From contig CAXSDE010000010.1 of NCBI GenBank assembly GCA_964236265.1, positions 2,826 to 66,825 of the forward strand: a stretch of DNA of 64,000 nucleotides, in the 5' to 3' direction. Below are positions 9,198 to 57,993 of this stretch, in pieces; positions within the stretch are counted from its first letter, which is position 1; every line of letters starts with the position of its first letter. The notes beneath the pieces are model-generated. The model had not been told where the DNA came from. It worked only from the letters and a program-made list of their open reading frames with translations, and ran no database searches. Source of the stretch: an uncultured bacterium. GTDB lineage: Bacteria > Actinomycetota > Actinomycetes > JAVEEB01. The position numbers and the translations under genes were made by a program.

Positions 9198-11042
9198 TCA
9201 GCCGAGCCCCGTCTGCACCGCGGTGAGCAGCTCGCTCGTGGTCGTGTCGCCGCCGAGCTCCCAGACGAAGGCGCCGCCGAGGCCCTGGTTCTTGGCGTAC
9301 GTCATCTTGCCGGTGATCGTCGCCGGTGTGTCGTAGCCCCACCACTGCCCGTTCTGGAAGCAGTACGCGGTGCCGCCGACCGTGCCGTTCGCGGGGCAGG
9401 ATGTCTTGAGCACCTTGTAGGTTTCAATGCCGTTCTCGGTCGTGCCCGGTGCCGGTCCCGTCGCGGAGCCACCCGGTGCGGCCTGCGTCACGCCCTGCCA
9501 GCCACGGCCGTAGAAGCCGATGCCCAGCAGGATCTTCGACGCCGGCACCCCCTTGCTCTTGAGCTTCTGCACCGCCGCGTCGGCGTAGAAGCCCGGCGTC
9601 GGAATGCCCGCGTACGACGTGAGTGGCGAGTGCGGCGCCGTCGGGCCGGTCGGGCTGAAAGCACCGAAGTAGTCGTACGTCATCGGGTCGATCCAGTCGA
9701 GGTAGGGCACCGCGCTGGCGTAGTCCGCCTTGTCGATGTTGCCGCCTGTCGTGCCGTCGGCGGTGATGGCTGCCGTCACGAGCTTGCTGGATCCGAAGCG
9801 GTTGCGCAGCGCGACGACGACGTTCGTGAAGGCGGCCGGCCCGGACGAGTCGCACTGCAGGCCGCACGCGTTGGGGTATTCCCAGTCGATGTCGATCCCG
9901 TCGAACACACCGGTCCAGCGCGGGTCGTTGACGACGTTGTAGCAGCTGTCAGCGAAAGCCGTCGGGTTGGCCGCGGCCTGCGTGAAGCCGGCTGACCATG
10001 TCCAACCACCGAACGAATACAGGACTTTCAGGCCGGGGTGCTTGGCCTTCAGCTCACGCAGCTGGTTGAAGCTGCCGCGCAGCGCGCCCGCATCCCACGT
10101 GTCGGCGACGCCGCTGACACTGTCGGCCGCGGCGTACGCCTGGTCGTAGTCGGCGTAGCTGTCACCCACGGAGCAGACCCCGTTGGCCGTGTTGCCGAAT
10201 GCGTAGACGATGTGCGTCAGTTTCGCCGCGGCGCCGGACGTCTCGATGTTCTTCACGAAGTATTTCGGGGCGTAGACGCCCCACTCCGTGAAGTAGCCGA
10301 CGACCTTCTTCGCGCCCGTGCTCGGCGGCGCGGTGGTTGTCGGCGTCGCGGTGGGCGTCGGCGTCGTGCTGGTCGTCGTACACGGGCCTTTGTCGACCCA
10401 CACGCCGGAGCCGCCGGTGCTCGGTGCCTCGCCCTGCGTCCACCACTTCGCCGTCCACTTGTGGCCGTTGTAGGTCACGCTCTGGTTGGCGGTGTAGACC
10501 GTCGCACTGGCGTAGGCCGGTGCACCCGCGCAGCTCGTCCCCGTGGTGGCGGTCGGGGTCGGGGTCGGCGTCACGGTCGGGGGGGTGCTGCCGGGGCCGG
10601 ACAGGGAGAAGTCGTCGCCGTTGTAGGTGCCCTGGCCATACCAGCCGTGGAGATAGACGGTGACCGCCTTCGTGGTCGCAGCCGTCGTGAAAGTGATGGA
10701 CAGCAGGCTGTACGACGCTGCCGCCGGCGTCCACGTCGACACCTCTGACATGCCGGTGCCCGTGGCGCCGATGTAGACGTAGTTGCCGCGGACGTAGCCG
10801 GCGAAGGTGTAGACCGTGTTGGGCTGCACCGTCACCGTCTGGCTGCACTGCGCGGTGTCACTCGCCGCTCCGGCGACGGCCTTCGTGCCGCCATGCACCG
10901 GCGTCGTGACGACGCTGCCGAGGCTGCACGTCCACGGGCTCACCGCGCCGGTCTCGAAGCCGGGGTTGGTGAGGAGCTCGACGGCGTGGGCGGATGGGAT
11001 CACGGCGGACATGAGCCCCGCGGTGAGCGCGAAGGCGGCCAC
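9198..11042 (-). CDS. Secreted GH18 chitinase with N-terminal CBM4/9-like sugar-binding module and CBM5/12 chitin-binding domain
   Basis: Signal peptide ending AHA; AYASATVYTANQSVTYNGHKWTAKWWTQGEAP (CBM5/12); Thr/Pro linkers; catalytic DGIDIDWEYP motif. GTG start, with an in-frame stop just upstream. Confidence 0.9.
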   Translation of the reverse strand: MAAFALTAGLMSAVIPSAHAVELLTNPGFETGAVSPWTCSLGSVVTTPVHGGTKAVAGAASDTAQCSQTVTVQPNTVYTFAGYVRGNYVYIGATGTGMSEVSTWTPAAASYSLLSITFTTAATTKAVTVYLHGWYGQGTYNGDDFSLSGPGSTPPTVTPTPTPTATTGTSCAGAPAYASATVYTANQSVTYNGHKWTAKWWTQGEAPSTGGSGVWVDKGPCTTTSTTPTPTATPTTTAPPSTGAKKVVGYFTEWGVYAPKYFVKNIETSGAAAKLTHIVYAFGNTANGVCSVGDSYADYDQAYAAADSVSGVADTWDAGALRGSFNQLRELKAKHPGLKVLYSFGGWTWSAGFTQAAANPTAFADSCYNVVNDPRWTGVFDGIDIDWEYPNACGLQCDSSGPAAFTNVVVALRNRFGSSKLVTAAITADGTTGGNIDKADYASAVPYLDWIDPMTYDYFGAFSPTGPTAPHSPLTSYAGIPTPGFYADAAVQKLKSKGVPASKILLGIGFYGRGWQGVTQAAPGGSATGPAPGTTENGIETYKVLKTSCPANGTVGGTAYCFQNGQWWGYDTPATITGKMTYAKNQGLGGAFVWELGGDTTTSELLTAVQTGLG

Positions 11043-11120
11043 GCCGGCAACCTTCCGCAGCCGCGACGCGCGCGGTGTCGATGCCTGGAATGTACGGGCG
11101 ATCTCCCTACCTGGAAGGCG

Positions 11121-11136
11121 AATGGTCTACACCAAT
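11121..11136. promoter_or_regulatory. dre-like (DasR/GntR-HutC responsive element) palindrome 1 upstream of the chitinase gene
   Basis: AATGGTCTACACCAAT matches the Streptomyces dre consensus A(G/C)TGGTCTAGACCA(G/C)T at 13/16 positions (core TGGTCTACACCA, 11/12). Lies about 80 bp upstream of the chitinase start. Confidence 0.5.
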
Positions 11137-11162
11137 TGGACGACAATGGGCCTGTGCCGTCG

Positions 11163-11180
11163 CATTGGTCAAGACCAATC
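11163..11180. promoter_or_regulatory. dre-like palindrome 2 upstream of the chitinase gene
   Basis: CATTGGTCAAGACCAATC, core TGGTCAAGACCA (11/12 to the dre core). Lies about 125 bp upstream of the chitinase start. Confidence 0.5.
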
Positions 11181-11271
11181 CAGCAGAGATTTTCGGGGGA
11201 ACCGCCGAGACTCGCACCAGCGCGCCGCTGCTGCGTGGGCCCGCAATAGTTCCGCAACGGGCGTCGGGACC

Positions 11272-12135
11272 TCAGCCCACGACGACGCCTAGGCCGCTCG
11301 CCTGCGAGAGCAGGTCGCGATAGGCCCCCTCGGTGGTCGTCTCGCAGCCGATCCGGTGGCCGGTGCTCGCGCCGTGATCGTCGCTCGACCCCGTGACGAA
11401 CAGCCCGAGGTCGGCGGCGAGCCGGCGCAGGCGCGCGCGGTCCTCCGGCGTGTGATCGGGGTGGTCGACCTCGAGCCCGGCGAGCCCGTACGCCGCGAGG
11501 TCGGCGATGTCGGCATCGGTCACCACGGGCCCCCGCTTGGCGGCGGCGGGATGAGCGAAAACGGGCACCCCGCCGGCGGCGCGCACGAGCGCCACGGCCC
11601 GGGCGGCGTCCAACGTGTATTTCTCCGTGTACGCGCGCCCGCCCAACCCGATCCACTCCGGGGTGAAGGCGGCCGCGAGGTCGGGCACGACACCCGCGTC
11701 GACGAGGGCGCGCGCCACATGGGGGCGCCCGACGGAGGTCGCGTCGCCGGCGATGGCGGCGACCTGCGCGCGCGAGATGGGCGCCCCGAGGGCGGTCAGC
11801 GTGTCGACCATGGCGCTCGCCCGCCGTTCGCGGTCGGTGGCCAGCGCATAGCGCTCGCCGGCGAAGACCGCCTCGGACGGGTCGAACAGGTAGGCGAGGA
11901 GATGCAGGTCGACCCGGGCACCGGTGCTCGAGTCCATCGCGCACGAGATTTCCGCACCGCTGACGAAGGTCTGGCCGGGCGCCAGCGCCCCGACGGCGGC
12001 CGACCAGCCGTCGGTCGTGTCGTGGTCGGTCAGCGCCACCACGTCGACGCCCGCCCGTGCGGCGAGCCGCATGACGTCAGCCGGGGGATCTGTTCCGTCG
12101 GACACGGACGAGTGGGTGTGAAGGTCGATGCGCAC
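11272..12135 (-). CDS. PHP-domain metal-dependent phosphoesterase (TrpH/YciV-like)
   Basis: MRIDLHTHSSVSDG...HP...DHPDHTP, the typical PHP histidine/aspartate metal-binding motifs. Confidence 0.85.
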   Translation of the reverse strand: MRIDLHTHSSVSDGTDPPADVMRLAARAGVDVVALTDHDTTDGWSAAVGALAPGQTFVSGAEISCAMDSSTGARVDLHLLAYLFDPSEAVFAGERYALATDRERRASAMVDTLTALGAPISRAQVAAIAGDATSVGRPHVARALVDAGVVPDLAAAFTPEWIGLGGRAYTEKYTLDAARAVALVRAAGGVPVFAHPAAAKRGPVVTDADIADLAAYGLAGLEVDHPDHTPEDRARLRRLAADLGLFVTGSSDDHGASTGHRIGCETTTEGAYRDLLSQASGLGVVVG

Positions 12136-20109: not shown

Positions 20110-20576
20110 GCTCCTGGGTCATCGTCACCGGGCACGACAATTTCGGCCGGACAGCCGCCCGCGGCTTCACCGTGCAAGGCGTCAAGTCGCGCCAGTGGCG
20201 CAAGGCGGCCGCGTTCGCGCCCGGCGACACGGCGCTGTTCTACGTGACCGGCGTCAAAGCCTTCGCCGGTGCCGTCACGATCACGTCCGAGACGTGGGAG
20301 GACCACGAGCTCTACTGGACATCCAAGCCGGGCGAGGATTATCCGTGGCGCTTCGAGATCGCGCCCCGGCTCGTGCTGCAGGACGAGGCCGACTGGGTGC
20401 CCGCCATCTCCGTGGTCGACGAGATCGCGTACTGCCGCAAATGGCCGCGCGAGCACTGGACGCTGGCCTTCCAGGGCAACGTCCACAGCTGGTCGGATGA
20501 GGATGCCGCCGTCGTGTTGGCGGCGCTGGACGCGTCGGCCGCCGCCGCCGTCGGCACGGTGCTGCGCGTCGGCTGA
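20106..20576 (+). CDS. Hypothetical protein, possible EVE/PUA-like domain
   Basis: 156 aa. Overlaps the upstream gene stop by 4 bp (ATGA). [13 protein letters not shown]...YPWRFEI is loosely EVE-like. Confidence 0.45.
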
Positions 20577-20582
20577 GCCACG

Positions 20583-20601
20583 CCGAACGAGAGTCGTTCG
20601 G
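20583..20601 (+). terminator. Hairpin directly after the stop codon (CCGAACGA-GAG-TCGTTCGG)
   Basis: Perfect 8-bp stem with a 3-nt loop starting 7 nt after the TGA at 20574-20576. No T-tract, which is typical for high-GC actinobacteria. Confidence 0.4.
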
Positions 20602-20699
20602 GACCCCAGGTCCCTCTCGCCGGAGGTGGGCGACGCGAGGCCCGTCGGCGACCACCGCCACGGAGCGAAAGGGGTGACAGCGGGCATCGCGGGGTTGGT

Positions 20700-21759
20700 A
20701 GTCCCTGCGACACTCGCACGAGGATCTTCTCCAGACCTTTCGCGTGCACCTCCCAGCCCATGTCCGTCTCCAGTGCGCCGGGAACGCGGGTGCCCGTCGT
20801 GTGCGGCGGCGGCCCCTGCGGGCGCGCGGCGATGACCTCGCGGAAGTAATAGTTGATGCCGAGATAGTCGAGGGGCTGCGCGATGGTCGCGAGGTCCGCC
20901 GCGTCCACGGGCGGCTCGACGCCGTCCACCTCGACCATGTCCGGCGGGAAGCCGCGACCGAAGACCGGGTCGAGCCACCACCGGTTGGCGTGCCCGTCCG
21001 CGCGCACGGCGGCGAGCGCATCCTCCGCGCTGTCACTCGCCGGCTCGATGGGGCTCAGGTTGAGCACGATCCCGGCCTGCGGGGCCAGCGTCGCCTCGGC
21101 GCGAATCGCCTGCATTCCGAGTCCGTGCGCGAGGAGCAGGTGGGCGCTCGCCGGCACCGCGGCCTTGATGTCCGTGCCGCCCGGTGCCATGACGGCCTCG
21201 AGGTGCCCGAGCCACGCGGAGCACAACGGCTCGTTGAAGGTCGTCCAGTGCTGCACCCGGTCGCCGAGGGCTTTCACGACGACGGACACGTAGTCGGCGT
21301 AGGCGAAGGCGGTGCCGCGCGCCGGCCAGCCGCCGCGGTCCTGCAGCACCTGCGGCAGGTCCCAGAGGTAGAGCGTGACGAACGGGTGTTGCCCCGCTCG
21401 AGGAGTTCGTCGACGAGCGCACTGTAGAAGTCGATGCCCTTGGCGTTGACTGTTCCGGTGCCGCTGGGAATGACGCGCGGCCACGCGATCGAGAAGCGGT
21501 AGGCGTTGGCGCCGGGCTCCTCGATCAGGTCGATGTCGCCGCGCCAGCGGTGGTAGTGGTCACAGGGCACGTCGCCGGCGTCGCCGTTCGCGACTTTGCC
21601 TGGCACGCGCGAGAACGTGTCCCAGATGGACAGCGACCGGCCGTCCTCATCGACGGCGCCTTCGATCTGGTACGACGCTGTCGCGACGCCCCAGACGAAG
21701 TCGGCCCCGAACGGCGGGTTGGCGTCCCCCGGGTGGCGGTCCACGAGGTCGCGGTCCAC
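20700..21759 (-). pseudogene. GH1 beta-glucosidase pseudogene (-1 frameshift in a C-run near 21385; 3-prime ~90 codons including the ITENG nucleophile region missing)
   Basis: N-terminus [15 protein letters not shown]...[10 protein letters not shown] is in frame 1; after ELLERG the frame shifts (ggcaacacccgttcgtc, expected NTPFVTLY) and [13 protein letters not shown]...LNLSP...YLGINYY continues in frame 2. There is no PLYITENG or DNFEW region before the convergent gene at 20576. Confidence 0.75.
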
Positions 21760-21769
21760 GGGACGGCGG

Positions 21770-21900
21770 TCCCTTCGGGTCAGGGGGCGGCGGTCCCTTC
21801 GGGTCAGGCGGGGCGGCGCTCCCTTCGGGTCAGGCGGGGCGGCGCTCCCTTCGGGTCAGGGGGCGGCGGTCCCTTCGGGTCAGGCGGGGCGGGCGTCTCG
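21770..21900. repeat. Five tandem copies of a ~24-27-bp unit (GCGGTCCCTTCGGGTCAGGSGGGCG), each with a CCCTTCGGG mini-hairpin
   Basis: gacggcggtcccttcgggtcagggggcg / gcggtcccttcgggtcaggcggggcg / gcgctcccttcgggtcaggcggggcg / gcgctcccttcgggtcagggggcg / gcggtcccttcgggtcaggcggggcg. Lies between the end of the ABC operon and the GH1 pseudogene start. Confidence 0.85.
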
Positions 21901-21907
21901 AGCGGCG

Positions 21908-23997
<2,090 letters not shown>

Positions 23998-24000
23998 GGG

Positions 24001-24977
24001 TCAGCCCTCCTTGCGCGTGCGCGGGTCGAGCAGCAGGTAGACCAGGTCGGCGAGGAAGTTCGCCGCGAGGACCGACAGCGTGATGATGAGGAAGATGCCC
24101 TGCATCAACGGGTAGTCCTTGGACTGGGTCGCCGCGAACAGCTGCAGCCCGATCCCCGGATACGAGAAGACGATCTCGACGAGGAACGTGCCACCGACGA
24201 TGAATCCGAGCGCGAGGGCAAAGCCGGAGATGCTCGGCAGCAGCGCGTTGCGCGCGGCGTAACTGAGCATCACACGGCGCTCGGACAGGCCCTTGGCATG
24301 GGCGACGGTGATGTAATCCTCCGACGCGACCGTCACCATCATGTTGCGCATGCCGAGGATCCACCCGGCGACGGACGACACGAGAATGGTGAACGCGGGC
24401 AGCAGGCTGTGCTGGAGCGCGTTGCCGATGAATTTCAGCTGCCAGTGCGGAACGATGCCCGGCGAGTAGCCGCCTGCCGAGGGGAAGAAGCTGTGCGGCC
24501 CGGCCATCAGGTCGATCATGATCAGGCCGAAGAAGAAATAGGGCACCGCGGCGAGGAACGTCGTCACCGGCAAGAAGGCATCCGCGATGCTCCCGCGGCG
24601 CCAGCCGAGCAGCACCCCGAGGCCGGTGCCGATGATGAAGCTGAGCACGGTCGTGGTGCCGACCAGGAAGACCGTCCACAGGATGCTCTGGCGGATGATG
24701 TCGAGCACCGGCGTCGGGAAGAACGTGAACGAGATGCCGAGGTCGTGCTCGATGAACAGCTTGTGGAGATAGTCGCCGTACTGCTTGATCAGCGGGTCGC
24801 CATTGAGCCCGAACAGGATGCGCAGCGAGGCCTCCTGCTTAGTGCTGATGCGGCCTTGCGACTTGGCGATGAGGCTGCTGACGGGGTCGCCGGGGATCAG
24901 GCGCGGGATGAAGAAGTTGACCGTGACGGCCGCCATCGCCGTGAACAGGTAGAAGGACACCCTGCGCAGCAGGTGCT

Positions 24978-24981
<4 letters not shown>
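24001..24981 (-). CDS. ABC transporter permease (DppB/OppB-like)
   Basis: Start [12 protein letters not shown]. Typical DppB fold. Confidence 0.9.
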
Positions 24982-26078
<1,097 letters not shown>

Positions 26079-26175
26079 AGAGCTTCCTGTCTGCCATTGG
26101 ACGTCAACTCACAGTCGCGCACGCTCCCCCGGACGGCAACCATCCGGGGGAGCGTGTCGCCGTACGCGGTGCGAC

Positions 26176-27966
26176 TTAGCTGGCGGGCTTCAGGGCGAGG
26201 ACGATCTGAAGCGCGTTCGGCTGCGTCGGCTGCGGAGCCGTCCACGGGTTGTCCTTGTCGGGCCAACCCGTCCAGTTCTTCGTGCTGTATTCCGCTCCGA
26301 CGTTGGACGCCGACGTGATGAGAACCGGCATGTTGTCGACGAAGATCTTCTCGATCGTCGCGAGGGCGGCCGTGCGCTTGGCGTCGTCCGCCGCGGTGGC
26401 GTACGTCTTGAGAGCCGCGGTGGCCTCTGCGTTCTGGAAGCGGCCGTAGTTGCCACCGCTGCCTGGCTTGCCGATCGGCTTCATGATGTCGCCGTTCATG
26501 ATGTTCTCGTAGAGGTCGTACGGCGTCGCGCCGCCGTTGGTCCAGTGCATCGCGGCGTCGAAGTCACCGGTGTCGATCTTGGCGAACCAGGCGTCCTCGT
26601 TGGCCTTCTCGACCTTGGCGTTGATGCCGATCTGCTTGAAGCTGTCGGCGATGATCGACAGGTCGGTCTGGTAGTCGGACCAGCCGGCAGGGTCGGTCAG
26701 CGTCAACGTGACCGGCTTGCCGTTCTTGTCCATCAGGTCGGCGCCGTTGTACTTGTAGCCGGCGTCGGTGAGCGCCTTCTTGGCGCCCTCGACGTCGACG
26801 GTGACGTCCTGGCCCTTGTAGTCGGCCGCGATGAACGGCTCACCAGCGGGCGTCGGGATGCCGGTGATGTTGGTGACCTCAGGGTAGAAGTAGCCGGCCT
26901 CGCCGATCTGGAAGATGTCGTCGCGGTTGATGACCATGTTCATGGCCTTGCGCAGAGCCGGGTCGTCGAACGGCGCATGCGTCTTGTCCGTGTTGAGCCA
27001 CAGGCCGTGCGCGCCTAGGTTCGGCGGGAACCACAGCTTGTTGTGGTCGGGGTCCTTGGCAGTGTAGACCTTTTCGATGTCCGGGATGAAGACGAAGCCC
27101 CAGTCGGCGTCACCGTTGGCGAGGGCGGTCGTCTCCGCGGCGTTGTCGGCGTAGGCCGTGTAGAGGAGCTTCGCGATCTGGGGCAGCGGCTGCCAGTAGC
27201 CACCGTCCTTGCGCAGGTCGAGCGTCGTCGTCTGCGGCGTGAAGGAGGTCAGCGTGTAGGGCCCGGAACCGACCGGGGTCTTGTTGGCGAACTTGCCCGG
27301 ATCGCCAGCGGTCTTCCAGATGTGCTCCGGCACGACGATCGTCGTGACGACCTTCGTCTGGTTGGTGAACTGCGACTCCTTGAACGTCACGGTGACCTTG
27401 TTGCCGGCTGCCGAGATCTTGTCGAACGGCAGGTTGTTGCCGTTGATCGACGGGTTGGCCTTGATGAGGTTGAACGTGAACGCCACGTCGGCGCCGGTGA
27501 CAGCCTGACCGTCGCTCCACTTGGCGTTGTCGCGGATCGTGAAGTCGACCTGCTGGAAGCCGTTGGACCAGGTCGCTTCGGTGGCCAGCCACGGCTTGCC
27601 CTTGGCGGCGGGGTCGATCGGGTTCATCATGATGAGGGGCTCGTAGATCATCGAGCGGGAACCGAGCGCCGCGCCGGCCGAGGAGCCGAGGAACGGGTTG
27701 AAGTTTTCGGTCTGCTGGCCGTTCGGCATACCGATCTTCAGGACGCCCGAAGCAGGACCCGCGGTGGCCGGCGCGGACGAAGAGTCCGACAACGACGGGG
27801 ACGGGGACATCATCGTGTCCGAGGTGGACGGCGAGGCCGAAGCGGGACCCGACGAGGACGAGGCGGCCGGAGAGGCCGAGCTCGACGTCGAGTTGGAGCA
27901 CGCGGCGAGACCGCCGAGTGCCAGCACACTAGCCACTGACGTGGCCACGGCGCGGTTGATACGCAT
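26176..27966 (-). CDS. ABC transporter substrate-binding lipoprotein, family 5 (peptide/nickel/oligosaccharide)
   Basis: Start MRINRAV; lipobox LAAC; Ser-rich linker; SBP_bac_5 body. Confidence 0.9.
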
Positions 27967-28666
27967 GCATTCTCCTTGAGTGGGTCTCATCCATACAGAA
28001 CGTGACTGGTGCTGTCTCGCCGCAGCTGCGGTGAGGGTGTCGCCTCCATGTGCGCGGATCAGACGACGACTCCGCGCGACCGGACCGGATCACCGGCAAC
28101 GATTACGCGACTTCGTTCCCTCGCTGAAACACCGCTCGTCGTGCGCGATGAGTTCGTCGAGATCGACCTTGGCGGACTTCCGTGCAACTGCCGACCTGCG
28201 GCGCCCCGGGGGGCGGGGCAAGCGTTCGCAGTCGACACAGCACTCCGTCCACATCGGTCCGGTCCGGCGGTGGGCAAGCATCGGTTCCGGCGTAAGTTTG
28301 TGGTGAGAGCGTGGCCAGGTCAATCACGATGAGGTAACGAAACGGCCTCGACTGAGCGCGCTCTCACCAGTGTCCGTCGCTTGTGCGAACCCACCCAACT
28401 GGCGTCGGCGGGAGTTGGGCATGCGTGAGGTGAGACTTCGCCGACAGCGTTAGACGCAACGGCGGTCGAGCCGGGCAGCGGCTCGGGAGCTGTCCGCCGC
28501 GATAGCGACGCGCGTTCCACCGAAGACTTGAAACGACCCGGTGCCCGAGCGCTGCCGACTTTAGCTGCGCACGTGCACCGGGTCGCCTTTCGTACCGTTA
28601 AACGTTCCGCGCGGGCAGCACGTGAGCGCGGGCACCAGGGACGCCGCGGACGTGTGGCTTCATCGA

Positions 28667-48343: not shown

Positions 48344-49339
48344 TCAGTCGTCGGCGATCCCACTGCTCGTGAGGCGGAAGCTTCCGCGCAGACGCTCACG
48401 CGTGCTCGCACCGGCCCCAGCGAGCGCCAGCGCGTGCAGCACGGCGCCGGTGACGGGGGGCACGTCCAGGATGCGCGTGCGCGCACGCGGCGCGTGGATC
48501 GCCAGCCGGGCATCGATACCGTCGACGAGCATCGCGGGACCGTGCTGAAGCATCCCGCCGCCCAGCACGACCGGCACCTCCTGATGGAGCAGGTCGAGTG
48601 TGCGGAGGTGGGCCACGATCATCGTCGTGATCTCCTCGGCGAGGCGGTCGACGATCGCCGTCGCGACCGGATCCCCCGCCACTGCGGCAGCGAAAACGAC
48701 CGGCGCGGCCGCGTGCAGGTCGTCGCCGTTGAGCCGGCCTTCGACGACACCCATGGCAACGTCCTCCGGCTCCATCCCGAAATGTTCTGTCATCGCGGCC
48801 CGCAGCAGCGTCTGCGCTCCGCGGCCGTCGCCGGCGCGCACGGCATCGCCGAGGCCGGCCAGGGCCACCCCTTCGCCGCCGCCCCAGTCGCCGGTCATCG
48901 GGCCGAGCGCGAGAAAACGCGCGGTGCGTCCGTCGGGGTGCACGCCCGTGGCGTTGATGCCCGCGCCGCACACCACGGCGATGCCCCACCCGGCGGGAGC
49001 GCCGGCATGCAGGATCGCGAACGTGTCGTTGTGCACGACCTCGCGGCGCGCATTGCCCTTCATGGCGATCTCCACGGCGAAAGCAGCCTCGTCGGCCGGC
49101 GTGTCGAGATTGGCGAGGAAGTAGGCGGCGACGGCGACGGGCTCGTCCGTCGCCAGGCCTGCTTCGTTTTTCGCTCGCTGGATGAGGTCGGTGACGTTGT
49201 CCACCGTCGTCGTCATGCCCTCGAAGTAGGCGCGCGTGCCCACCCCGCGCACGCGCGAGAGCACGTCGCCGTCAGTGGTGGCGAGCACGACGTCGGTCTT
49301 GGAGTTGCCACCGTCGATGCCGATGACGTAGTCAGACAC
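48344..49339 (-). CDS. BadF/BadG/BcrA/BcrD-type ATPase (N-acetylglucosamine-kinase-like sugar kinase)
   Basis: GTG start VSDYVIGIDGGNSKTDVVL (glycine-rich phosphate-1 loop). Overlaps the GH4 gene by 8 bp. Confidence 0.75.
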   Translation of the reverse strand: MSDYVIGIDGGNSKTDVVLATTDGDVLSRVRGVGTRAYFEGMTTTVDNVTDLIQRAKNEAGLATDEPVAVAAYFLANLDTPADEAAFAVEIAMKGNARREVVHNDTFAILHAGAPAGWGIAVVCGAGINATGVHPDGRTARFLALGPMTGDWGGGEGVALAGLGDAVRAGDGRGAQTLLRAAMTEHFGMEPEDVAMGVVEGRLNGDDLHAAAPVVFAAAVAGDPVATAIVDRLAEEITTMIVAHLRTLDLLHQEVPVVLGGGMLQHGPAMLVDGIDARLAIHAPRARTRILDVPPVTGAVLHALALAGAGASTRERLRGSFRLTSSGIADD

Positions 49340-50616
49340 TGGAGTCCCCGTTCGGGAAGAAGGCGGGCAGAAAATCCCGGTTGAGCTCGAGCAGCTCGTC
49401 GAGCAGCGGCACGAGGGTGTCCCATTGCCGGACGAGAGGATTGGCGAGCAGCGCCCTGCGCGCGACAGTGCGATCCCCGGTGCGCGCGGCTTCGATGGCA
49501 AGCACTTCGTACGCCGTGACTTCTTGAACGAGGCCGAGCATTTCGGGCGGCAACGGCGGCACGAAGACCGGGTGCGCGCCGTCCAGGTCGACATGCGCGG
49601 GCACTTCGACCACCGCGTCCGCCGGCAGCCCTTCGATCGTCCCGTTATTGCGGACGTTGACGTAGTGGTGAGCGCCGTCACCGGTGAACAGGCTCGTCAC
49701 GAGGGCGGCGGCGGCCTCGCTGTAGTAGGCCCCGCCGCGGGACTGCAGCAGCTCGGGCAGCGCGTCGAGCGCCGGGTCCTGATACAGCTCGAGAAGCTCG
49801 GCCTCGATCTTCATGACGTCGGTCGCCCGGTGGTTGCCGAGCTGCTGCGTGTGCAACTCCTCGGCGGTGCAATAGAAGTAGTGCAGGTAGTACGACGGGA
49901 TCGCGTTGATCGTGCGCAGCAATTCGACAGGTGCCCCGATATCGGCGGCCAGCTCCGCAGCCTGCGGCCCGGCCAGCCACTCCGGCAGCCGGTCGACTCC
50001 GGCGACCTCCACGGAACGGATCCACGTGAGGTGGTTGAGGCCGGCGTGACCCAGGCGGACCGCATCGGGGGCGACGTCGAACGCCTTCGCGACGCGGCGC
50101 TGGAAGCCGATGCCGACGTTGCACAACCCCACGGCACGGTGACCGGCGTCGAGCAGCGCGCGCGTCACGATTCCGACAGGATTCGTGAAGTCGACGATCC
50201 ACGCCCCCGGCGCCGCCAGCCGCCGCACGTCGTCCGCGATCCGGAGCACCACGGGCACCGTGCGCAGCGCCTTCGCGAAGCCGCCCGCCCCCGTCGTCTC
50301 TTGGCCGATCAGCCCGTGCTTGTTGGGCGTCGTCTCGTCGCCGAGGCGCGCCGTCTGGCCGCCCACACGCAACTGGATGAGCACGGCCGACGCGCCGGTG
50401 ATGGCGGCGTCGCGGTCGGTCGTCGTGACGAGACGGCCGGGGAAGCCGTGCCGCGCGAGGATGCGCTGGGCGAGCGCGCCGACGACGCGCAACCGCTCGG
50501 CGTCGATGTCGTGCAGGACGAGCTCGTCGACGGGGAGTGCCGCTGCCCGGCGCGCGAAACCTTCCACGAGCTCCGGGGTGTAGGTGCTGCCTCCCCCGAT
50601 GACGGTGATCTTCACG
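49332..50616 (-). CDS. Glycoside hydrolase family 4 (NAD+/Mn2+-dependent; 6-phospho-beta-glucosidase/ChbF/LicH-like)
   Basis: GTG start MKITVIGGGSTYTPELV (Rossmann NAD site). Conserved GH4 motifs CNVGIG, GLNHLTW and HYVNVRNNG. GGAGA RBS. Confidence 0.85.
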
Positions 50617-50708
50617 GGTGTCTCCAGTCGGGGTCTCGTGCGCCGGATGCGGGCGCGCAGGCAGTGCCGCACGCCGCCGCGGTGGTGATGATCGTCGGAG
50701 GGCGGAGG

Positions 50709-51794
50709 TCAGCCGGAGCCGACCTCGACGGGGGTCGTGCCGGGGTCGGGCCGAGCCACGTGGCACGCCGCGGTGTGCTGGTCGCCGAGCAACCGCCCCG
50801 GCGGCGTCACCTCGGAGCAGATGTCGATCGCCAACGGGCACCGGAAGCGGAACCGGCAGCCCGGCGCGGGGTCGACGACCTTCGGTGGCTCGCCGCGGTC
50901 GGTCTCGGCCCCGATGGTCAGTGAGGCCCGCGGGTCGGGCACCGCAGACAGCAGCAACTGCGTGTAGGGATGCTTCGCACGCGAGAGGACGGCCTCGGTC
51001 GGGCCGGACTCGACGATGTGACCGGCATACATGATGACCATGCGGTCGGCGACGTAGCGGGCGCTCGCGATGTCGTGCGTGATGTAGAGGAACGACACGC
51101 CCGCCTCGGCGCGGAGCTTCGACATGAGGTTGAGCACACCGATGCGGATCGACACGTCGAGCATCGACACCGGCTCGTCGGCGAGGATGAGCTTCGGCCG
51201 GTAGGCGAGCGCCTGCGCGAAGCCGATGCGCTGGCGCTGGCCGCCGCTGAGCTCGTGCGGGAACCGCTCCAGGATGTCGGCGGCCGGAGCCAGCCCCACG
51301 GCCTCGACGACCCGCTCGGCCTCGGCCGTGCGCTGCGCCTTCGACGTCATGTCCGGGCGGTGCAACTCGAGCCCGCGGACGATGCCGTGCGACACGCGGT
51401 AGGCCGGGTTGAGCGAGCTGAAGGGATCCTGGAACACCATCGGCACATCGCTGCGGTAGCCCTGCAGCGCCCGCCGGGTCCGCATGCCGGACAGCGGCTT
51501 TCCCTCGTACAGGATCTCCCCGCTCGTCGGCTTGTAGACCCGCGCGAGGAGCCGCGCGATCGTGCTCTTTCCGCTGCCGCTCTCGCCCGCGAGGGCCACG
51601 ATCTCGCCGCGATTGATGACGAGGCCGGCGTCGTCGACGGCGTGGAGTTTGCGCCGCGACCACAGGCCACCGCCGATCGAGAAGTGCTTGGTGAGCAGCG
51701 TTGTCTCGAGCAACGGGACCGTTGTCGCGGCGGTGCCGTCCGGCCGGACCGCCCGCTCGGCCGCCGGCGTCGATATCCGGGTCGACTCGCTCAT
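50709..51794 (-). CDS. Oligopeptide-type ABC transporter ATP-binding protein (DppF-like)
   Basis: Start MSESTRIST. Walker [10 protein letters not shown], signature LSGGQRQRI. Confidence 0.9.
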   Translation of the reverse strand: MSESTRISTPAAERAVRPDGTAATTVPLLETTLLTKHFSIGGGLWSRRKLHAVDDAGLVINRGEIVALAGESGSGKSTIARLLARVYKPTSGEILYEGKPLSGMRTRRALQGYRSDVPMVFQDPFSSLNPAYRVSHGIVRGLELHRPDMTSKAQRTAEAERVVEAVGLAPAADILERFPHELSGGQRQRIGFAQALAYRPKLILADEPVSMLDVSIRIGVLNLMSKLRAEAGVSFLYITHDIASARYVADRMVIMYAGHIVESGPTEAVLSRAKHPYTQLLLSAVPDPRASLTIGAETDRGEPPKVVDPAPGCRFRFRCPLAIDICSEVTPPGRLLGDQHTAACHVARPDPGTTPVEVGSG

Positions 51795-52801
51795 GCTGTC
51801 TGCACCGGGAGCTGCAGCGGCACCGAATCGGTGACGGACAACGCGTTCGGCGCGTGCCACAGACAGCGCGCGTAGGCCGAGCTGACCGCATACAACGCCG
51901 GCTCCTCGTGCGTGCAGCGTTCCTTGACGAGCGTGCACCGCGGCGAGAACCGGCAACCCGCGGGCGGGTGCGCGAGGTCGGGCGGACTCCCGGGGATGCC
52001 GGTCAGTTCCACCCGCGGACCGGTGATCGACGGGAACGCGTCGAGCAGTCCCTGGCTGTAAGGGTGCGCCGGGAGGTCGAAGACCTGCCGAGTCGGTCCG
52101 ATCTCGGCGACCTGACCGGCGTACATGACCATCAACTGGTCGGAGAAGTGGCTCACCAGGGACATGTCGTGGGTGACGAAGATGACCGCGAAACCCAGTT
52201 CCTGCTGCAGTTCTTTGATCTGCACCATGAGCGACCGCTGCGCGACGACGTCGAGGGCGGAGGTCGGCTCGTCCATGATGACGAGGTCGGGCGTGAACAG
52301 CAGCGCCATCGCGATCATCGCCCGCTGCCGCATGCCCCCGCTGAGCTGATGCGGATAGCTCTGGAGGTGGATCGGGTCGATGCCGACGAGACGCATCACC
52401 TCCACCGGGCGTCCCTCGGACACGCGTGTGTCGCGGTGGGCGGCCAGCGTGTCGGCGAACTGCTGCCCGATCGTCTTCACCGGGTTGAGCGCATTCATGG
52501 CGCTCTGCATCACCACGGAGAAGTCCCGCCACCGCATGGCCCGCAGTTGCTTGTCGGTCAGCGTCACGAGATCGCGGCCGGAGAAGCGGACCGACCCGCC
52601 CGTGATCGCCGCCGGCGCGCTCAGCAACTGCGCGATGGCGAACAGCAGCGTCGACTTACCGCACCCGGACTCGCCGACGATGCCGACGAACTCGCCGCGA
52701 TGCACCGTCAGGTCGACCCCGTCGACGGCGCGGACGCCGCCGCGGGAGCTGTCGTATTCGACCCGCAGGTCGCGGACCTCAAGAATGCGCGCGCTTGACA
52801 C
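51791..52801 (-). CDS. Oligopeptide-type ABC transporter ATP-binding protein (DppD-like)
   Basis: GTG start with GGAGG RBS. Walker A GESGCGKST, signature LSGGMRQRA. Confidence 0.9.
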   Translation of the reverse strand: MSSARILEVRDLRVEYDSSRGGVRAVDGVDLTVHRGEFVGIVGESGCGKSTLLFAIAQLLSAPAAITGGSVRFSGRDLVTLTDKQLRAMRWRDFSVVMQSAMNALNPVKTIGQQFADTLAAHRDTRVSEGRPVEVMRLVGIDPIHLQSYPHQLSGGMRQRAMIAMALLFTPDLVIMDEPTSALDVVAQRSLMVQIKELQQELGFAVIFVTHDMSLVSHFSDQLMVMYAGQVAEIGPTRQVFDLPAHPYSQGLLDAFPSITGPRVELTGIPGSPPDLAHPPAGCRFSPRCTLVKERCTHEEPALYAVSSAYARCLWHAPNALSVTDSVPLQLPVQTA

Positions 52802-53714
52802 GGGACCTCCGGATCGGACGCAGGGCCGGGTTGCTGATCTCGTCGAACGCGTAGTTGAGCAAGGCGAACGAGACCCCGAGGGTAGCGACGGCGAGGCCCG
52901 GCGCCAGCGCCCACGCGGGGAATCCACTGGCGAGCGCTCCCTGATTCTGCGCCCAGTAGAGCATCGTGCCCCAGCTCAGCGAGCCGGGGTCGCCCAGGCC
53001 GAGGAACTGCAGTCCGGCCGCGGTGAGCACGGCGTAGAGCGCGGCGCCGAGGAAGTTGGCCACGATCAGCGACGACATCGTCGGCAGCATCTCGCGGATG
53101 ATGATGTAGGACCGGCGCTCGCCGCGGACTCGCGCCGAGGTCAGGAAGTCGCGGTTGCGCAGCGACAGTCCCTGTGCGCGCATCTGCCGGGCGCCGTACG
53201 ACCATCCCGTCACGACGAGCACGACGATGACCACGCCGAGGTTTCCCTTACCCGCGAACGTTGCCAGCACGATGATGAGCGGGAACGTCGGGAGCACCAG
53301 GAAGATGTCTGTGATGGCGGACAGGATGTCGTCCGCGATCCCGCCGAGATAGGCCGCGGAGACGCCGATCAGCACCGACAGGATCGTGGCGCCGAGACCC
53401 GCGACCAGCGCGATGATGAGCGACTCGCGCGTGCTGTAGATGAGCTCCGCGTAGACATCCTGGCCGAGCCCCGTGGTGCCGAGCCAGTGCTGGGCCGACG
53501 GGTGCAGCAGAGGGATGTCGCCGATGTCGCGCGGGTCTGCGTGCTGCCACGGCACGAACAGGTGCGGGAAGGCGGCCAGCAGACAGAAGAGGACGAAGAG
53601 ACCCGCGCCCACCATGGCCTTGCGGTTGCCCCGCACGGCGCGCAGCACGCCGCCGCGGCGCCGGCGCGGCAGTTCCTCGGCCACGGCGGCGGGGTCGACG
53701 AGCAAGGTGGTCAT
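52779..53714 (-). CDS. ABC transporter permease (DppC-like)
   Basis: Start [14 protein letters not shown]_transp_1 permease. Confidence 0.9.
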
Positions 53715-53718
53715 GGCC

Positions 53719-54717
53719 TCACCCCTTCGTCCGGGCACGGGGGTCGAGGAGGAACACCGCGACATCGCAGAGCAGCACGCAGATGAGCACGGCCAGCGTC
53801 ACCAGCAGGAACAGCGCCTGCAGCAGCGGATAGTCGGTGCTGATCGTCGCGGAGTAGAACATGTGGCCGAGCCCGGGATAGTTGAAGACGTACTCGACGA
53901 GGATCGTTCCGGCGATGACGAATCCCAGCGACATCGCGAACCCGGACAGGTTGGGCAGGAACGCGTTGCGGGCCGCGTAGCCCATCATCACGCGCCGGTT
54001 CGACAGACCCTTGGCGCGGGCCATCCGCACGTAGTCCTCGCCGAGCGTCGTGATCATGTTGTTGCGCATCGTCAGGATCCAGCCGCCGATCGCCGTGATG
54101 AGGATCGTCGCCGCCGGCAGCACCGCATGCTCGAGGACGCTCGCGATGAACGGTCCGTGGAAGCCCGGCGTCAGCCCGATGTCGTAGTTGTTGTCGTTCG
54201 GCAGCAGCGCGTGCGGCCCGTTCGCGAAGAGAACGATCAGCAACAGCGCCACCCAGAAGTAGGGCAGGGCGGACGTGACGACGAACATCGGCGGCAGGAC
54301 GCCGTCGAGGAAGCCGCCGCGCCGCCACCCGGCGATGATCCCGATGGAGGTGCCCAGCAGGAACGCGAGCAGCGTCGTGACTCCGACCAGACCCAGCGTC
54401 CACGGGAGCGCCTGTCCGATCAGCGTCGTGACGGGCGCCCCGAGCGTGCCGCCGATCGAGATGCCCCAGTGCCCGGTCACCATGTTGCCGAGATACTCGA
54501 CGTACTGCTGGGCGATGTTCTTGCCCGGGTCGAAGCCGAACTGCTGCAGCATCGCCCGCAGCTGTTCGACGTCGACCACGTGCCCGCCGTGCGAGAGCCG
54601 CGCCTTCATCGCCGAGACCGGATCGCCCGGCATCATGCGCGGAATGAAGAAGTTGAGGGTGATCGCCGCCCACAACGTGAGGACGAAGAATCCGAGCCGG
54701 CGGAGCAGGAACCTCAT
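53719..54717 (-). CDS. ABC transporter permease (DppB-like)
   Basis: Start [17 protein letters not shown]. Confidence 0.9.
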
Positions 54718-54755
54718 GGCGGTCACCTCCCAGCGTCGAGTGTTGCGCGGACGGG

Positions 54756-56585
54756 TTACTTCTGCGCGGACTTCGAGAACACGTTGAGCAGGATCTGCTC
54801 GTTGTCCGGGACGTTCCAGGGCGCGGGCTGCGCGTAGGGGTTGTCCTTGGTCGGCCAGCCGTCGAAGTCCGTGGTGTTGTACTGATACCAATCCACGGAT
54901 TCCGTCGTCGGGATGAACGGCACGTCGGCGATCATCGCGGCCTCGATCTGCTTGACGATCGCGATCTGGCCGGCGTCGTCGGCGGAGGCGTATTTATCGA
55001 ACAGCGCGTCGAGCGCCGGGTTCTTGTAGCGCATGTAGTTGGACGGCGCATCCGTGCCGATCGGTGCCGAGTTCTTCGAGTAGAGCAACTGGCGAAGCTC
55101 GTAGTAGGGCGACGGTCCAGCCGACAGCTGCGGCCCGTAGGCCAGGTCGAAGTCGCCCTTGTAGAGGCGGTCGTTGTAGGTCTGACCCTCGAGGTCCTTG
55201 ATAGTCAACGAGATGCCCAGCGGCTTGAGCTGCTGCTTGATGACCGCCAGCGAGGCGTCCCAGTCGGTGTAACCGGACACCGTGATGACGTCGAGCTCGA
55301 GCGGGTTGTCCGGCGTGTAGCCCGCCCCGGCCAGCAGCTCCTTCGCCTTGGCCGGGTTGGGCTTGTCGTAACCGGAGGCGGTCAGCGCGGCGGAGTCGAA
55401 GTATTTGTCGAACGTAGGGACGACGATGCCGGTCTGATTGGCGGCGGGCTGGTAGCCGCTCTCCCCGATCTTCGAGATCTGCGCTCGGTCGAGACCGTAG
55501 GCGATCGCCTGCCGGACGGCCAGCGTGCTCGTGGCCTTGTGCGACGGGTCGACGTTGGGCAGGAGGGCGACGTTCATCATCGGCGGGAACCAGTAATTGT
55601 TGTCCGGCGACTTGCCCTTGTAGAACGTGTCGATGTTGGGGATGTATTGCCCGCCCCATTGCGCCTTGTTGTTGGCGAGGTCGAGGTTGGCCGGATTGTT
55701 GTCGAGATACGCCGGATACTGCACCGTCTGGATCGCGGGCTTGCCCGGCTGCCAGTAGTGCGGGTTGGCCGTGTAGGTGATGTTGTTGGGCGTGCACGGG
55801 TGGACCATGAACGGCCCGGTGCCGACGGGGTTGGGGTCGGCCCAGGTGTCGCCCTTCGACGCGGCTTCGCCGGTCGACCAGATGTGCTTCGGAACGATGG
55901 TGACCGTGCCGGCAAACAGGTAGAAGTAGGCCTGCGCGGGCTGCGCGAACGTCAGCGTCACGGTGCTGCCCGACGCCGTGGCGCTCTGCAGCCCCGCGCC
56001 GGTCCACAGCGAGTAGAGATCCAGGGCGGGGTTCTTCTTCATGAGCTCGAACGTGTAGGCGACATCGTCGGCCGAGAACGGCTGACCGTCGTTCCAGGTC
56101 ACGTTCTGGCGCACGGTGAAGGTGATGGACTTCTTGTCGGAGCTCCACTTGTAGGACTCGGCGAGCATCGGCGTCTCGGCACCCGCCTTCAACGCGTTGA
56201 CGTAGACGAGGGGCTCGTAGACGAACCCGTTCGCCTGGGGGCTGACGGCCGGATTGAACGGGTTGAACTGGCACGTCCAGCTAGCGCCGGACTCGTTCGA
56301 GATCGTCAGCGTGCCGCCCGGCTTGTGCACCGTCGTGTCGGCACCGGTGCCCGTCGGTGACGGCGCCGCGGACTGCGACCCCGATCCCGTCGCGCTGCCC
56401 GGTCCGCTCGGGCTGCTCGTCGCCCCGCCGGCCGTCCCCCCACTGGTCGTCCCCCCGCCGGCCGTCCCCCCGCCGGCCGTCGAGGTCGAGGTCGCCGTCG
56501 TGCTGCTCCCCCCACTCGTGCAGGCGGCGGCCAACAGAGCCACCACGCCAGCGACAGCCGCACCGGATATGCGCCTCATCGTCAT
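54756..56585 (-). CDS. ABC transporter substrate-binding lipoprotein, family 5 (oligosaccharide/peptide)
   Basis: LLAAAC lipobox; Gly/Thr/Ser-rich linker; SBP_bac_5 domain. Confidence 0.9.
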
Positions 56586-56709
56586 TGCCCCTCACTGCTG
56601 GTTCGGTGCCCGGCATTCGCCTGGCTGCTGACGGTTGCTCGCTGCTGGTGCTTGCTACTGGTGCTGCTGCCGGCCTTCGCTGCGAAGTTGTTAGGAAGCT
56701 AACCTACCA

Positions 56710-56727: not shown

Positions 56728-57993
56728 ATGCAGCAGGCAACGATCGTTACGATGTCGCGGATCGAGGAGGCGCACGTGCCGGCTGGACGCGGGCAAGGCC
56801 CGGCGGCGCGCCCGCAACTGCTCCGCGAGATGAACGAGCAGGTGCTCCTGCACCTCATCCGCGAGCGTGGCCCGCTGTCGCGTGCGGATCTCGCCCGCGT
56901 GTCGGGACTGTCCAAGCCGACCGTCTCCCTCGGCCTTGCCAACATCGAGCGCGCAGGTCTCGTGCGCGCCGCGGGTGTCCGCACCGGGGTGCCGGGACCG
57001 GCAGCCATCCTGTACGAAGTGCGGCCCGACTGCGGCTATGTCCTCGGCCTCGACGTCGGCCGGCACTACATGCGGGCCGCGGTCGCTGACATGGCCGGCG
57101 CCGTCCGCAGCAGGGGTGCCGTGCGGGTCACCGCCACCGACGGGCCGACCCGCGTTGCCGAGCTGACGACGCTCGCCGACAAGGTGCTCGGCGAGGCACT
57201 GCTGACCCACGCCGACATCACGCAGACCGTCATCGGCAGCCCTGGTGTCTACGACCCACAGCGCGACGCCCTGGCGTTGTCGAGCAACCTCCCCGGCTGG
57301 GGTGTTCCCGCGGTCCTCGACCAGCTGCGGTCGGCCTTCGGTGCCTCGGTGATGGTGGAGAACGACGTCAACGTCGCGGCCCTGGCCGAGCGGGCACACG
57401 GGCACGGGCGCGACATCGACAGTTTCGCGTTCGTCTCGATCGGCACCGGCATCGGCATGGGCCTCGTGCTCGACGGAAAGCTGCACCGGGGGGTGCACGG
57501 CATCGCCGGTGAGATCGGTTACCTGCCGTTCTCCGAGGGCAGCGGCGGCGACACCGATACCGACGCCGCGCGCGAGCGCGGGACGTTCGAGGCCATTTCC
57601 AGCGCCGACGCCGTCGTGCGGGCGGCGCAGCGGGCCGGGGTCGGCGACGCGACGACGGCCGTGCGGGTCTTCGACGCGGCCGCCGCTGGGGACGCCGCGG
57701 CCTCGTCCGTGGTTGCGGAACAGGCGCGCATCGTGGCGAAGGCGGTCTGTGCCGTCGTCACCGTCGTCGACCCGGAGCTGATCGTGCTCGGCGGTGGCAT
57801 CGGCCAGGCGCCCGGCTTCGTGGAGGCGGTCGCGAGCGAGTTGCACGCGCTCGCACCCGTCATGCCCGACGTGAAGATGAGCGCCCTCGGCGCCGACGCC
57901 GTGATCGACGGTTGCCTGGCCGCCGGGATCGATCGCGCGTGGTCGCTTCTCAGCGCCGCGGTGCCGAGCCCCGCGGCGGGCACCGCCGACTGA
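56728..57993 (+). CDS. ROK-family transcriptional regulator (NagC/Mlc-like)
   Basis: N-terminal wHTH (LSRADLARVSGLSKPTVS) plus a ROK sugar-kinase-like domain (GLDVGRHYMRAAVAD...GIGMGLVLDGKLHRG). Confidence 0.9.
   Translation: MQQATIVTMSRIEEAHVPAGRGQGPAARPQLLREMNEQVLLHLIRERGPLSRADLARVSGLSKPTVSLGLANIERAGLVRAAGVRTGVPGPAAILYEVRPDCGYVLGLDVGRHYMRAAVADMAGAVRSRGAVRVTATDGPTRVAELTTLADKVLGEALLTHADITQTVIGSPGVYDPQRDALALSSNLPGWGVPAVLDQLRSAFGASVMVENDVNVAALAERAHGHGRDIDSFAFVSIGTGIGMGLVLDGKLHRGVHGIAGEIGYLPFSEGSGGDTDTDAARERGTFEAISSADAVVRAAQRAGVGDATTAVRVFDAAAAGDAAASSVVAEQARIVAKAVCAVVTVVDPELIVLGGGIGQAPGFVEAVASELHALAPVMPDVKMSALGADAVIDGCLAAGIDRAWSLLSAAVPSPAAGTAD

Follow-up and report, generated by a model that had tools for sequence, protein, structure and literature searches.

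Introduction

The published consensus of the dre operator is A(G/C)TGGTCTAGACCA(G/C)T (PMC6097792), and the GT-N4-AC layout is regarded as the signature of the HutC subfamily of regulators (PMC4494728); in the crystal structure of NagR bound to DNA, the GG of the TGGT half-site is read by Arg38 and Arg48 (PMC4333415). Earlier work on dre in the chitinase promoters of S. coelicolor, S. lividans and S. plicatus (Colson et al. 2007; Delic et al. 1992; Ni & Westpheling 1997) is reviewed in PMC6097792. DasR binds to dre sites in the chitinase promoters of S. coelicolor, as assessed by EMSA and ChIP, and deletion of dasR in this organism alters chitinase transcription only slightly (PMC6097792); maximal chi expression in S. 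coelicolor has also been reported to require DasR (PMC6167110). In Saccharopolyspora erythraea, according to the work of Liao et al. (2014) as cited in PMC6167110, DasR represses the chi genes, and in Bacillus thuringiensis the regulator NagR represses chiB (PMC6141813). Since the effects reported for S. coelicolor and S. erythraea differ, neither the sign nor the strength of control should be assumed. CsnR boxes, which constitute a different type of operator, are mentioned before chitinases only for Streptosporangium roseum, an organism said to lack a DasR orthologue (PMC6097792).

Here, we describe a pair of dre-like palindromes upstream of a chitinase gene of an uncultured actinobacterium, contained in a stretch of 64 kb of DNA that was analysed as a whole and is referred to below as the window. 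The position of the pair, its conservation in orthologous promoters and its relation to a candidate promoter make it likely that the palindromes are operators of a HutC-type regulator.

Results

The chitinase gene and its surroundings

Gene calls were made by GC3-based selection of open reading frames and domains were assigned with Pfam. The chitinase gene lies on the minus strand (9198..11042) and encodes a protein of 614 residues with a signal peptide, CBM_4_9 and CBM_5_12 modules and a GH18 domain bearing the catalytic motif DIDWEYP, which bears out the preliminary description of the gene downstream of the palindromes as a GH18 chitinase; protein P0001 is 100% identical to it. The intergenic region upstream of the chitinase is adjoined by a gene for a PHP-domain phosphoesterase (11272-12135, minus strand), and the chitinase gene is followed by genes for a PD-(D/E)XK nuclease (8150-9016, minus strand) and, downstream of the latter, an aminotransferase (6945-8153, minus strand). 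As the PHP gene ends at 11272 and is read from the same strand, the chitinase gene is the only gene that sites in the intergenic region can serve. About 100 nt past the chitinase stop codon, a G+C-rich hairpin of 13 bp (9062..9097, minus strand; -37.8 kcal/mol, z = -3.3) is a probable terminator, so that the chitinase gene is probably monocistronic. A consensus terminator scan gave no match in 8900-9300, having missed this hairpin because it has no T-tract.

The wider neighbourhood is that of a core actinobacterial chromosome, with mgtE, mrp, an ECF sigma factor, glgA/glgC, pepA and dapD/dapE, and the G+C content of the window is 69%. The GlgC protein clusters (at 90% identity or above) with proteins from Frankiaceae/Frankiales metagenome-assembled genomes, and nearly all of the window proteins tested are singletons at 90%, which agrees with the earlier statement that the host is a non-Streptomyces actinobacterium and allows a Frankiales-related lineage to be proposed tentatively.

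Several other features of the window were recorded. Its first part (1-6400) is slightly lower in G+C (66-67%) and contains no convincing genes; the long open reading frames at 51-1514, 1560-2330 and 2462-3088 have no Pfam match, a poor GC3 signal and no Rfam match, and an Rfam search of the whole window found no RNA family. A second Dpp-type ABC transporter operon (20339-27990) encodes an SBP_bac_5 protein (26176-27990), an ATPase and two permeases. The open reading frame that follows it (20339-21484) matches the GH1 profile only partially, over positions 111-349 of 453, and may be truncated or mis-started.

Two palindromic sites resembling dre

The two palindromes were found in the window exactly as they had first been given. 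Read directly from the DNA, the putative proximal operator occupies 11121..11136 (AATGGTCTACACCAAT on the plus strand, ATTGGTGTAGACCATT in the gene sense) and the putative distal operator occupies 11164..11179 (ATTGGTCAAGACCAAT, ATTGGTCTTGACCAAT in the gene sense), the latter being a 16-mer within the 18-mer CATTGGTCAAGACCAATC (11163-11180). Both lie in one intergenic region of 229 bp, 43 bp apart from centre to centre. With respect to the GTG start codon of the chitinase gene (11042-11040), they are located 79-94 bp and 122-137 bp upstream, and the 18-mer 121-138 bp upstream, so that the overall span of 79-138 bp is in close agreement with the 80-135 bp originally proposed.

Each site agrees with the dre core TGGTCTAGACCA in 11 of its 12 bases, reproducing the earlier count, and with the longer consensus ACTGGTCTAGACCACT (16 bp) in 13; in each case, the departures from the longer consensus affect a single central base and two bases in the flanks. 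Indeed, positions 2 and 15 of both sites are A/T and not G/C as in the consensus A(G/C)TGGTCTAGACCA(G/C)T. Self-complementarity extends to 12 of 16 positions in one site and to 14 of 16 in the other, the distal site. The element TGGT-N4-ACCA is complete in both half-sites of both operators, and with it the HutC signature GT-N4-AC is present.

When TGGTCTAGACCA was searched for with at most one mismatch, the 64 kb yielded two matches, namely these two sites, against an expectation of 0.06 derived from 100 dinucleotide-preserving shuffles of the window, none of which gave two or more matches. With two mismatches allowed, the number of matches (three, with an expectation of 1.18) does not reach significance; the signal thus consists of two near-perfect sites, 43 bp apart, in a single intergenic region. 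The preliminary description had termed these sites dre elements of the DasR type: the agreement with the dre consensus, the HutC signature and the association with a chitinase gene support the dre assignment, while the label specific to DasR goes further than a motif that fits HutC-type regulators in general.

Conservation in orthologous promoters

The full domain architecture of the chitinase, at 67% identity or above, is found in only three proteins of a collection of 5.8 billion. Two of the corresponding loci, both metagenomic, are syntenic with the window. Locus L081 (P0002, chitinase 78% identical) has the order PHP gene, chitinase, PD-(D/E)XK and aminotransferase, and locus L082 (P0003, 73% identical) has chitinase followed by PD-(D/E)XK. 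In the gene sense, the window reads GATTGGTCTTGACCAAT, then 27 nt, then ATTGGTGTAGACCATT. The same GATTGGTCTTGACCAAT is present in L081, with a distal 16-mer (387-402) identical to that of the window and a proximal site ACTGGTGTAGACCATT at 429-444. The L082 contig is cut at its end and begins within the distal site, as TGGTCTTGACCAAT (1-14), all 14 remaining bases of which are identical, and carries the proximal site ACTGGTGTAGACCACT at 41-56. L081 and L082 share the core of the proximal site, TGGTGTAGACCA, without change, and in a further relative, L203, it is weakened to TCGTGTAGACCA.

In the alignment of these promoters (A1), the operator columns are invariant, against an average column identity of 53% over the whole region. 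The spacing from centre to centre (window, 43 bp; L081 and L082, 42 bp each) is fixed, although the sequence of the spacer itself has diverged in L081 and L082.

L203 is a non-syntenic relative, with a catalytic domain that is 78% identical and an upstream region (3867-4000) homologous to that of the window. Next to its chitinase gene are an SBP_bac_1 ABC transporter and a ROK regulator gene in divergent orientation. Of the two dre sites of L203, the distal one is degraded and the proximal one weakened, which may reflect a change of regulator.

A 13-mer in the same intergenic region, GTTGCGGAACTAT in the gene sense (11246-11258), lies just past the stop codon of the PHP gene, with about 65 bp between it and the distal operator further downstream, and is identical in L081 despite differing flanks. 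It may be a further site of regulation, or else belong to the 3' end of the PHP gene.

Candidate promoter and translation signals

A candidate -35 hexamer, TTGACC (11167..11172, minus strand), lies inside the distal operator and is followed after 18 nt by a candidate -10 hexamer, CATTGT (11143..11148, minus strand). If transcription starts 6-8 nt past the -10 hexamer, the start would fall near 11136, where the proximal operator begins. At the aligned -35 positions, L081 and L082 have TTGACC and L203 has TTAACC; the counterparts of the -10 hexamer are CATTGT in L081 and CAAGGT in L082, each after a spacer of 17 nt. These candidate hexamers are weak, and a simple sigma-70 consensus scan of 10900-11400 reported no promoter, so that the proposed promoter model draws on the alignment and not on the scan.

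The alignment also bears on the start of the chitinase gene. In the orthologues, GGGAG or GGAGG is followed 7-9 nt on by a GTG or ATG start codon. The window retains GGGAG as what appears to be an ancestral ribosome-binding site (11103..11107, minus strand), with CGT (11096-11094) as the codon aligned to the orthologous start and GCG in place of the internal ATG used in L081; because neither can serve, the first usable start in the window is the GTG at 11042, which is preceded at a distance of 8 nt by GGAAGG, a likely ribosome-binding site (11051..11056, minus strand). A frameshift at the 5' end of the chitinase gene was considered and rejected, re-alignment showing instead a substitution of the start codon (GTG to CGT) and a spacer that is shorter by 1 nt.

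Translation from the GTG at 11042 yields MAAFALTAGLMSAVIPSAHA, a signal peptide lacking the basic n-region; the in-frame sequence upstream would supply one (RASRLRK). This arrangement could point to a non-canonical start (an in-frame CTG lies before RK), to an assembly error or to impaired secretion.

Search for the regulator and for further sites

No gene for a GntR/HutC regulator was found in the 64-kb window, either with Pfam or by tblastn with DasR (a query identical to the sequence of PDB entries 9i0v/4zs8), and the regulator must consequently act in trans. Beyond this pair, the 64 kb contain no further dre-like site with at most one mismatch, and for this reason no claim concerning a regulon is made.

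Exact copies of the distal site in metagenomic contigs

A scan of metagenomic contigs with the exact distal 16-mer returned at least 120 loci. Eight of the 120 listed had a G+C content of 65% or more, and most of the matches listed, being in low-GC contigs, are probably due to chance. The high-GC contigs that were read among the matches listed are L155, L091, L113 and L088. In L155, an unrelated contig of 68% G+C, a GH18+CBM5_12 gene is preceded at a distance of about 95 bp by a tandem pair (1404-1441), the two members of which, ATTGGTCTGCACCAAT and ATTGGTCTTGACCAAT, begin 22 bp from each other; the second site of this pair supplies a TTGACC -35 hexamer inside the dre, followed after 17 nt by TACAAA.

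In L091 (3468-3483) and L113 (5522-5537), two unrelated contigs of 74% G+C, ATTGGTCTTGACCAAT is found 96 bp upstream of a gene for a GntR+UTRA (HutC) protein, adjoined by a second, perfect inverted repeat, CTATGG-N4-CCATAG. The two HutC proteins share 80% identity with one another and only 29% with DasR. The 16-mer is placed as would be expected for autoregulation and, should these sites indeed be autoregulatory, it would not be specific to orthologues of DasR. Its presence before genes for HutC proteins this distant from DasR makes 'HutC-type' a safer designation for the regulator than 'DasR orthologue'.

Operators at homologous chitinases across actinobacteria

The motif was also surveyed at 80 loci with chitinase homologues, taken from GTDB species representatives and amounting to about 1 Mb in all. 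A tblastn search of these loci with six neighbouring proteins of the window gave no match, none of the loci being syntenic with the window, and they serve as a cross-taxon survey only. Pairs of dre-like 12-mers (at most two mismatches, starts 21-24 bp apart) occur directly upstream of the chitinase in 16 of the 80 loci, comprising all 13 loci from Pseudonocardiales (genera Actinophytocola, Saccharothrix, Actinosynnema, Umezawaea and Amycolatopsis) and three of the four from Streptomycetaceae (L053, L061 and L069). Locus L005, from a metagenome-assembled genome labelled Streptomyces, has no dre-like pair before its chitinase. At the stricter threshold of at most one mismatch, 21 of the 22 matches in the approximately 1 Mb are upstream of a chitinase.

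Dre-like sites are absent from the surveyed loci of Micromonosporales, Streptosporangiales, Kribbella, Nocardioides and Cellulomonas. A CsnR-type box, TTAGGAAAnTTTCCTAA, is present in 35 of the 80 loci, all of which belong to Micromonosporales, Streptosporangiales or Actinomadura; the loci of Kribbella, Nocardioides, Cellulomonas and Catellatospora have neither a dre-like pair nor a CsnR-type box. In the loci examined, dre pairs and CsnR-type boxes at homologous chitinases are taxon-specific and mutually exclusive. The CsnR box GGAAANTTTCC is absent from the entire window, as is any match to the 13-mer AGGAAAnTTTCCT with up to two mismatches. This division between dre and CsnR-type operators is of somewhat wider comparative interest, since a 2018 review (PMC6097792) treated chitinases with CsnR boxes as an exception.

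The window contains a ROK-family regulator gene of its own (56728-57993, plus strand), divergent from an operon (48344-56585) that encodes a BadF/NagK-like sugar kinase (48344-49681), a GH4 glycosidase (49332-50672) and a Dpp-type ABC transporter (SBP_bac_5, two permeases and two ATPases). The operon is possibly involved in sugar uptake; an NCBIfam search of the ROK, ABC, GH4 and kinase genes gave no name above threshold. The palindrome GTTAGGAAGCTAAC (56690-56703) lies between the ROK gene and the operon, and its left half resembles the CsnR box. No dre was found at this operon or in the ROK intergenic region.

Discussion

We consider it likely that the two palindromes are operators through which a dimeric GntR/HutC repressor, of the DasR/NagR type and with its gene in another part of the genome, controls the promoter of a monocistronic gene for a secreted GH18 chitinase. 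In favour of this reading are the statistical significance of the two sites, the conservation of both at a fixed spacing, and the recurrence of dre-like pairs before homologous chitinases in Pseudonocardiales and Streptomycetaceae. The distal operator would overlap the -35 hexamer and the proximal operator would begin at about +1, so that one dimer could cover the -35 region and another the start site. As 42-43 bp correspond to approximately four helical turns, both dimers would be on the same face of the DNA. The bound repressor would exclude RNA polymerase by promoter occlusion, and an amino-sugar phosphate formed when chitin is degraded (GlcN-6-P or GlcNAc-6-P, by analogy with DasR and NagR) would release it, leading to de-repression of the chitinase. 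From this geometry we infer repression in preference to activation. We are less confident that the regulator is orthologous to DasR in the strict sense and responds to either of these phosphates.

The alternative that survives best retains the operators and changes the protein. They may be bound by a HutC-subfamily paralogue, and not by the DasR/NagR orthologue, with an effector of its own (for example chitobiose or an unrelated metabolite), in which case the promoter would not respond to GlcNAc in the sense established for DasR. The exact ATTGGTCTTGACCAAT located 96 bp before the HutC genes of L091 and L113 favours this possibility, as does the consensus of the HutC subfamily as a whole, which TGGT-N4-ACCA closely resembles (PMC4494728). 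In addition, the A[A/T]...[A/T]T flanks and the spacing of 42-43 bp depart from the pattern of canonical Streptomyces dre pairs, which speaks against a DasR reading. On the other hand, chitinase genes are classic targets of DasR/NagR in Streptomyces, Saccharopolyspora and Bacillus thuringiensis (PMC6097792, PMC6167110, PMC6141813), both sites match the 12-bp dre core at all positions but one, and the sites in L091 and L113 are themselves putative. On balance, a paralogue of this kind appears unlikely.

A more elaborate proposal combines such a paralogue with an evolutionary scenario. A HutC paralogue distinct from DasR would act through two operators, four helical turns apart and bracketing the -35 hexamer and the start, by cooperative or looped repression; orthologous actinobacterial chitinases would have switched repeatedly between HutC (dre) and ROK (CsnR-box) control, and L203 would be an intermediate caught in the act, with its dre decaying beside a newly adjacent ROK gene. 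This scenario is speculative and, taken as a whole, rather improbable.

The conserved blocks could also be something other than HutC operators, namely a promoter element (the TTGACC -35 hexamer) together with an unrelated element of the 5' untranslated region or a site for a ROK, LacI, TetR or response regulator. A near-consensus -35 hexamer within the distal block would be conserved by itself, a ROK regulator gene is present in the window (56728-57993) and the ROK gene of L203 is divergent from, and adjoins, the orthologous chitinase. Conservation, however, extends beyond the hexamer to a full palindrome of 14-16 bp in both blocks, and the proximal block has an invariant core with no promoter-like hexamer. 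Moreover, the ROK-type CsnR box GGAAANTTTCC, which precedes 35 of the homologous chitinases, is absent from the window, and L203, the locus with the adjacent ROK gene, has degraded and not kept its dre-like sites. We therefore regard this explanation as very improbable. Chance similarity without function, for which it can be said that short palindromes do arise by chance and that the count at two mismatches (three) is not significant, is effectively refuted by the two matches in the same intergenic region against 0.06 expected, with none of the 100 shuffles giving as many, and by the retention of both sites at a fixed spacing in orthologues with a diverged spacer.

Binding of the pair by a HutC-type repressor thus being the reading that we prefer, the known link between dre/HutC operators and chitinases in Streptomyces, Saccharopolyspora and Bacillus is extended to an uncultured, probably Frankiales-related soil actinobacterium. 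The general understanding of chitinase regulation is unchanged, the switch being of an ordinary and well understood kind. The phylogenetically footprinted promoter could find use as a chitin- or GlcNAc-responsive element.

Comparison with known systems

The nearest counterparts are the dre pairs of S. coelicolor, S. lividans and S. plicatus, which likewise consist of paired TGGTCTAGACCA-type sites at the promoter of a secreted GH18 chitinase and overlap the core promoter, as is proposed for the window. The Streptomyces sites have A(G/C)..(G/C)T flanks, whereas those of the window have A[A/T]..[A/T]T. The two also differ in spacing, which is 21-24 bp from start to start in the 16 loci of Streptomycetaceae and Pseudonocardiales, and 22 bp in L155, compared with 42-43 bp in the window, L081 and L082; the pair of the window therefore does not have the Streptomyces-type spacing of about two helical turns.

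As a non-Streptomyces actinobacterium in which DasR binds dre and represses chi, Saccharopolyspora erythraea offers a precedent for the present case; its DasR is given there as 72% identical to that of S. coelicolor (Liao et al. 2014, in PMC6167110; PMC11076491). It differs from the lineage of the window in order and in operator spacing, and the Pseudonocardiales loci in the series L040-L080 carry the same pairs. NagR (YvoA) of B. subtilis and B. thuringiensis is an orthologous HutC repressor that acts on dre-type sites in Firmicutes (PMC4333415, PMC6141813). Native Bacillus dre usually retain the second G in one half-site only (PMC4333415), whereas the sites of the window retain it in both. 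The CsnR box, recognized by the ROK regulator CsnR (PMC6097792), is an alternative operator at homologues of the same chitinase, unrelated to dre in sequence and in the family of its regulator. The pair of the window agrees with dre in sequence, in its location in a chitinase promoter and in its conservation in L081 and L082 and, judged by sequence criteria, belongs to the dre/HutC class of operators.
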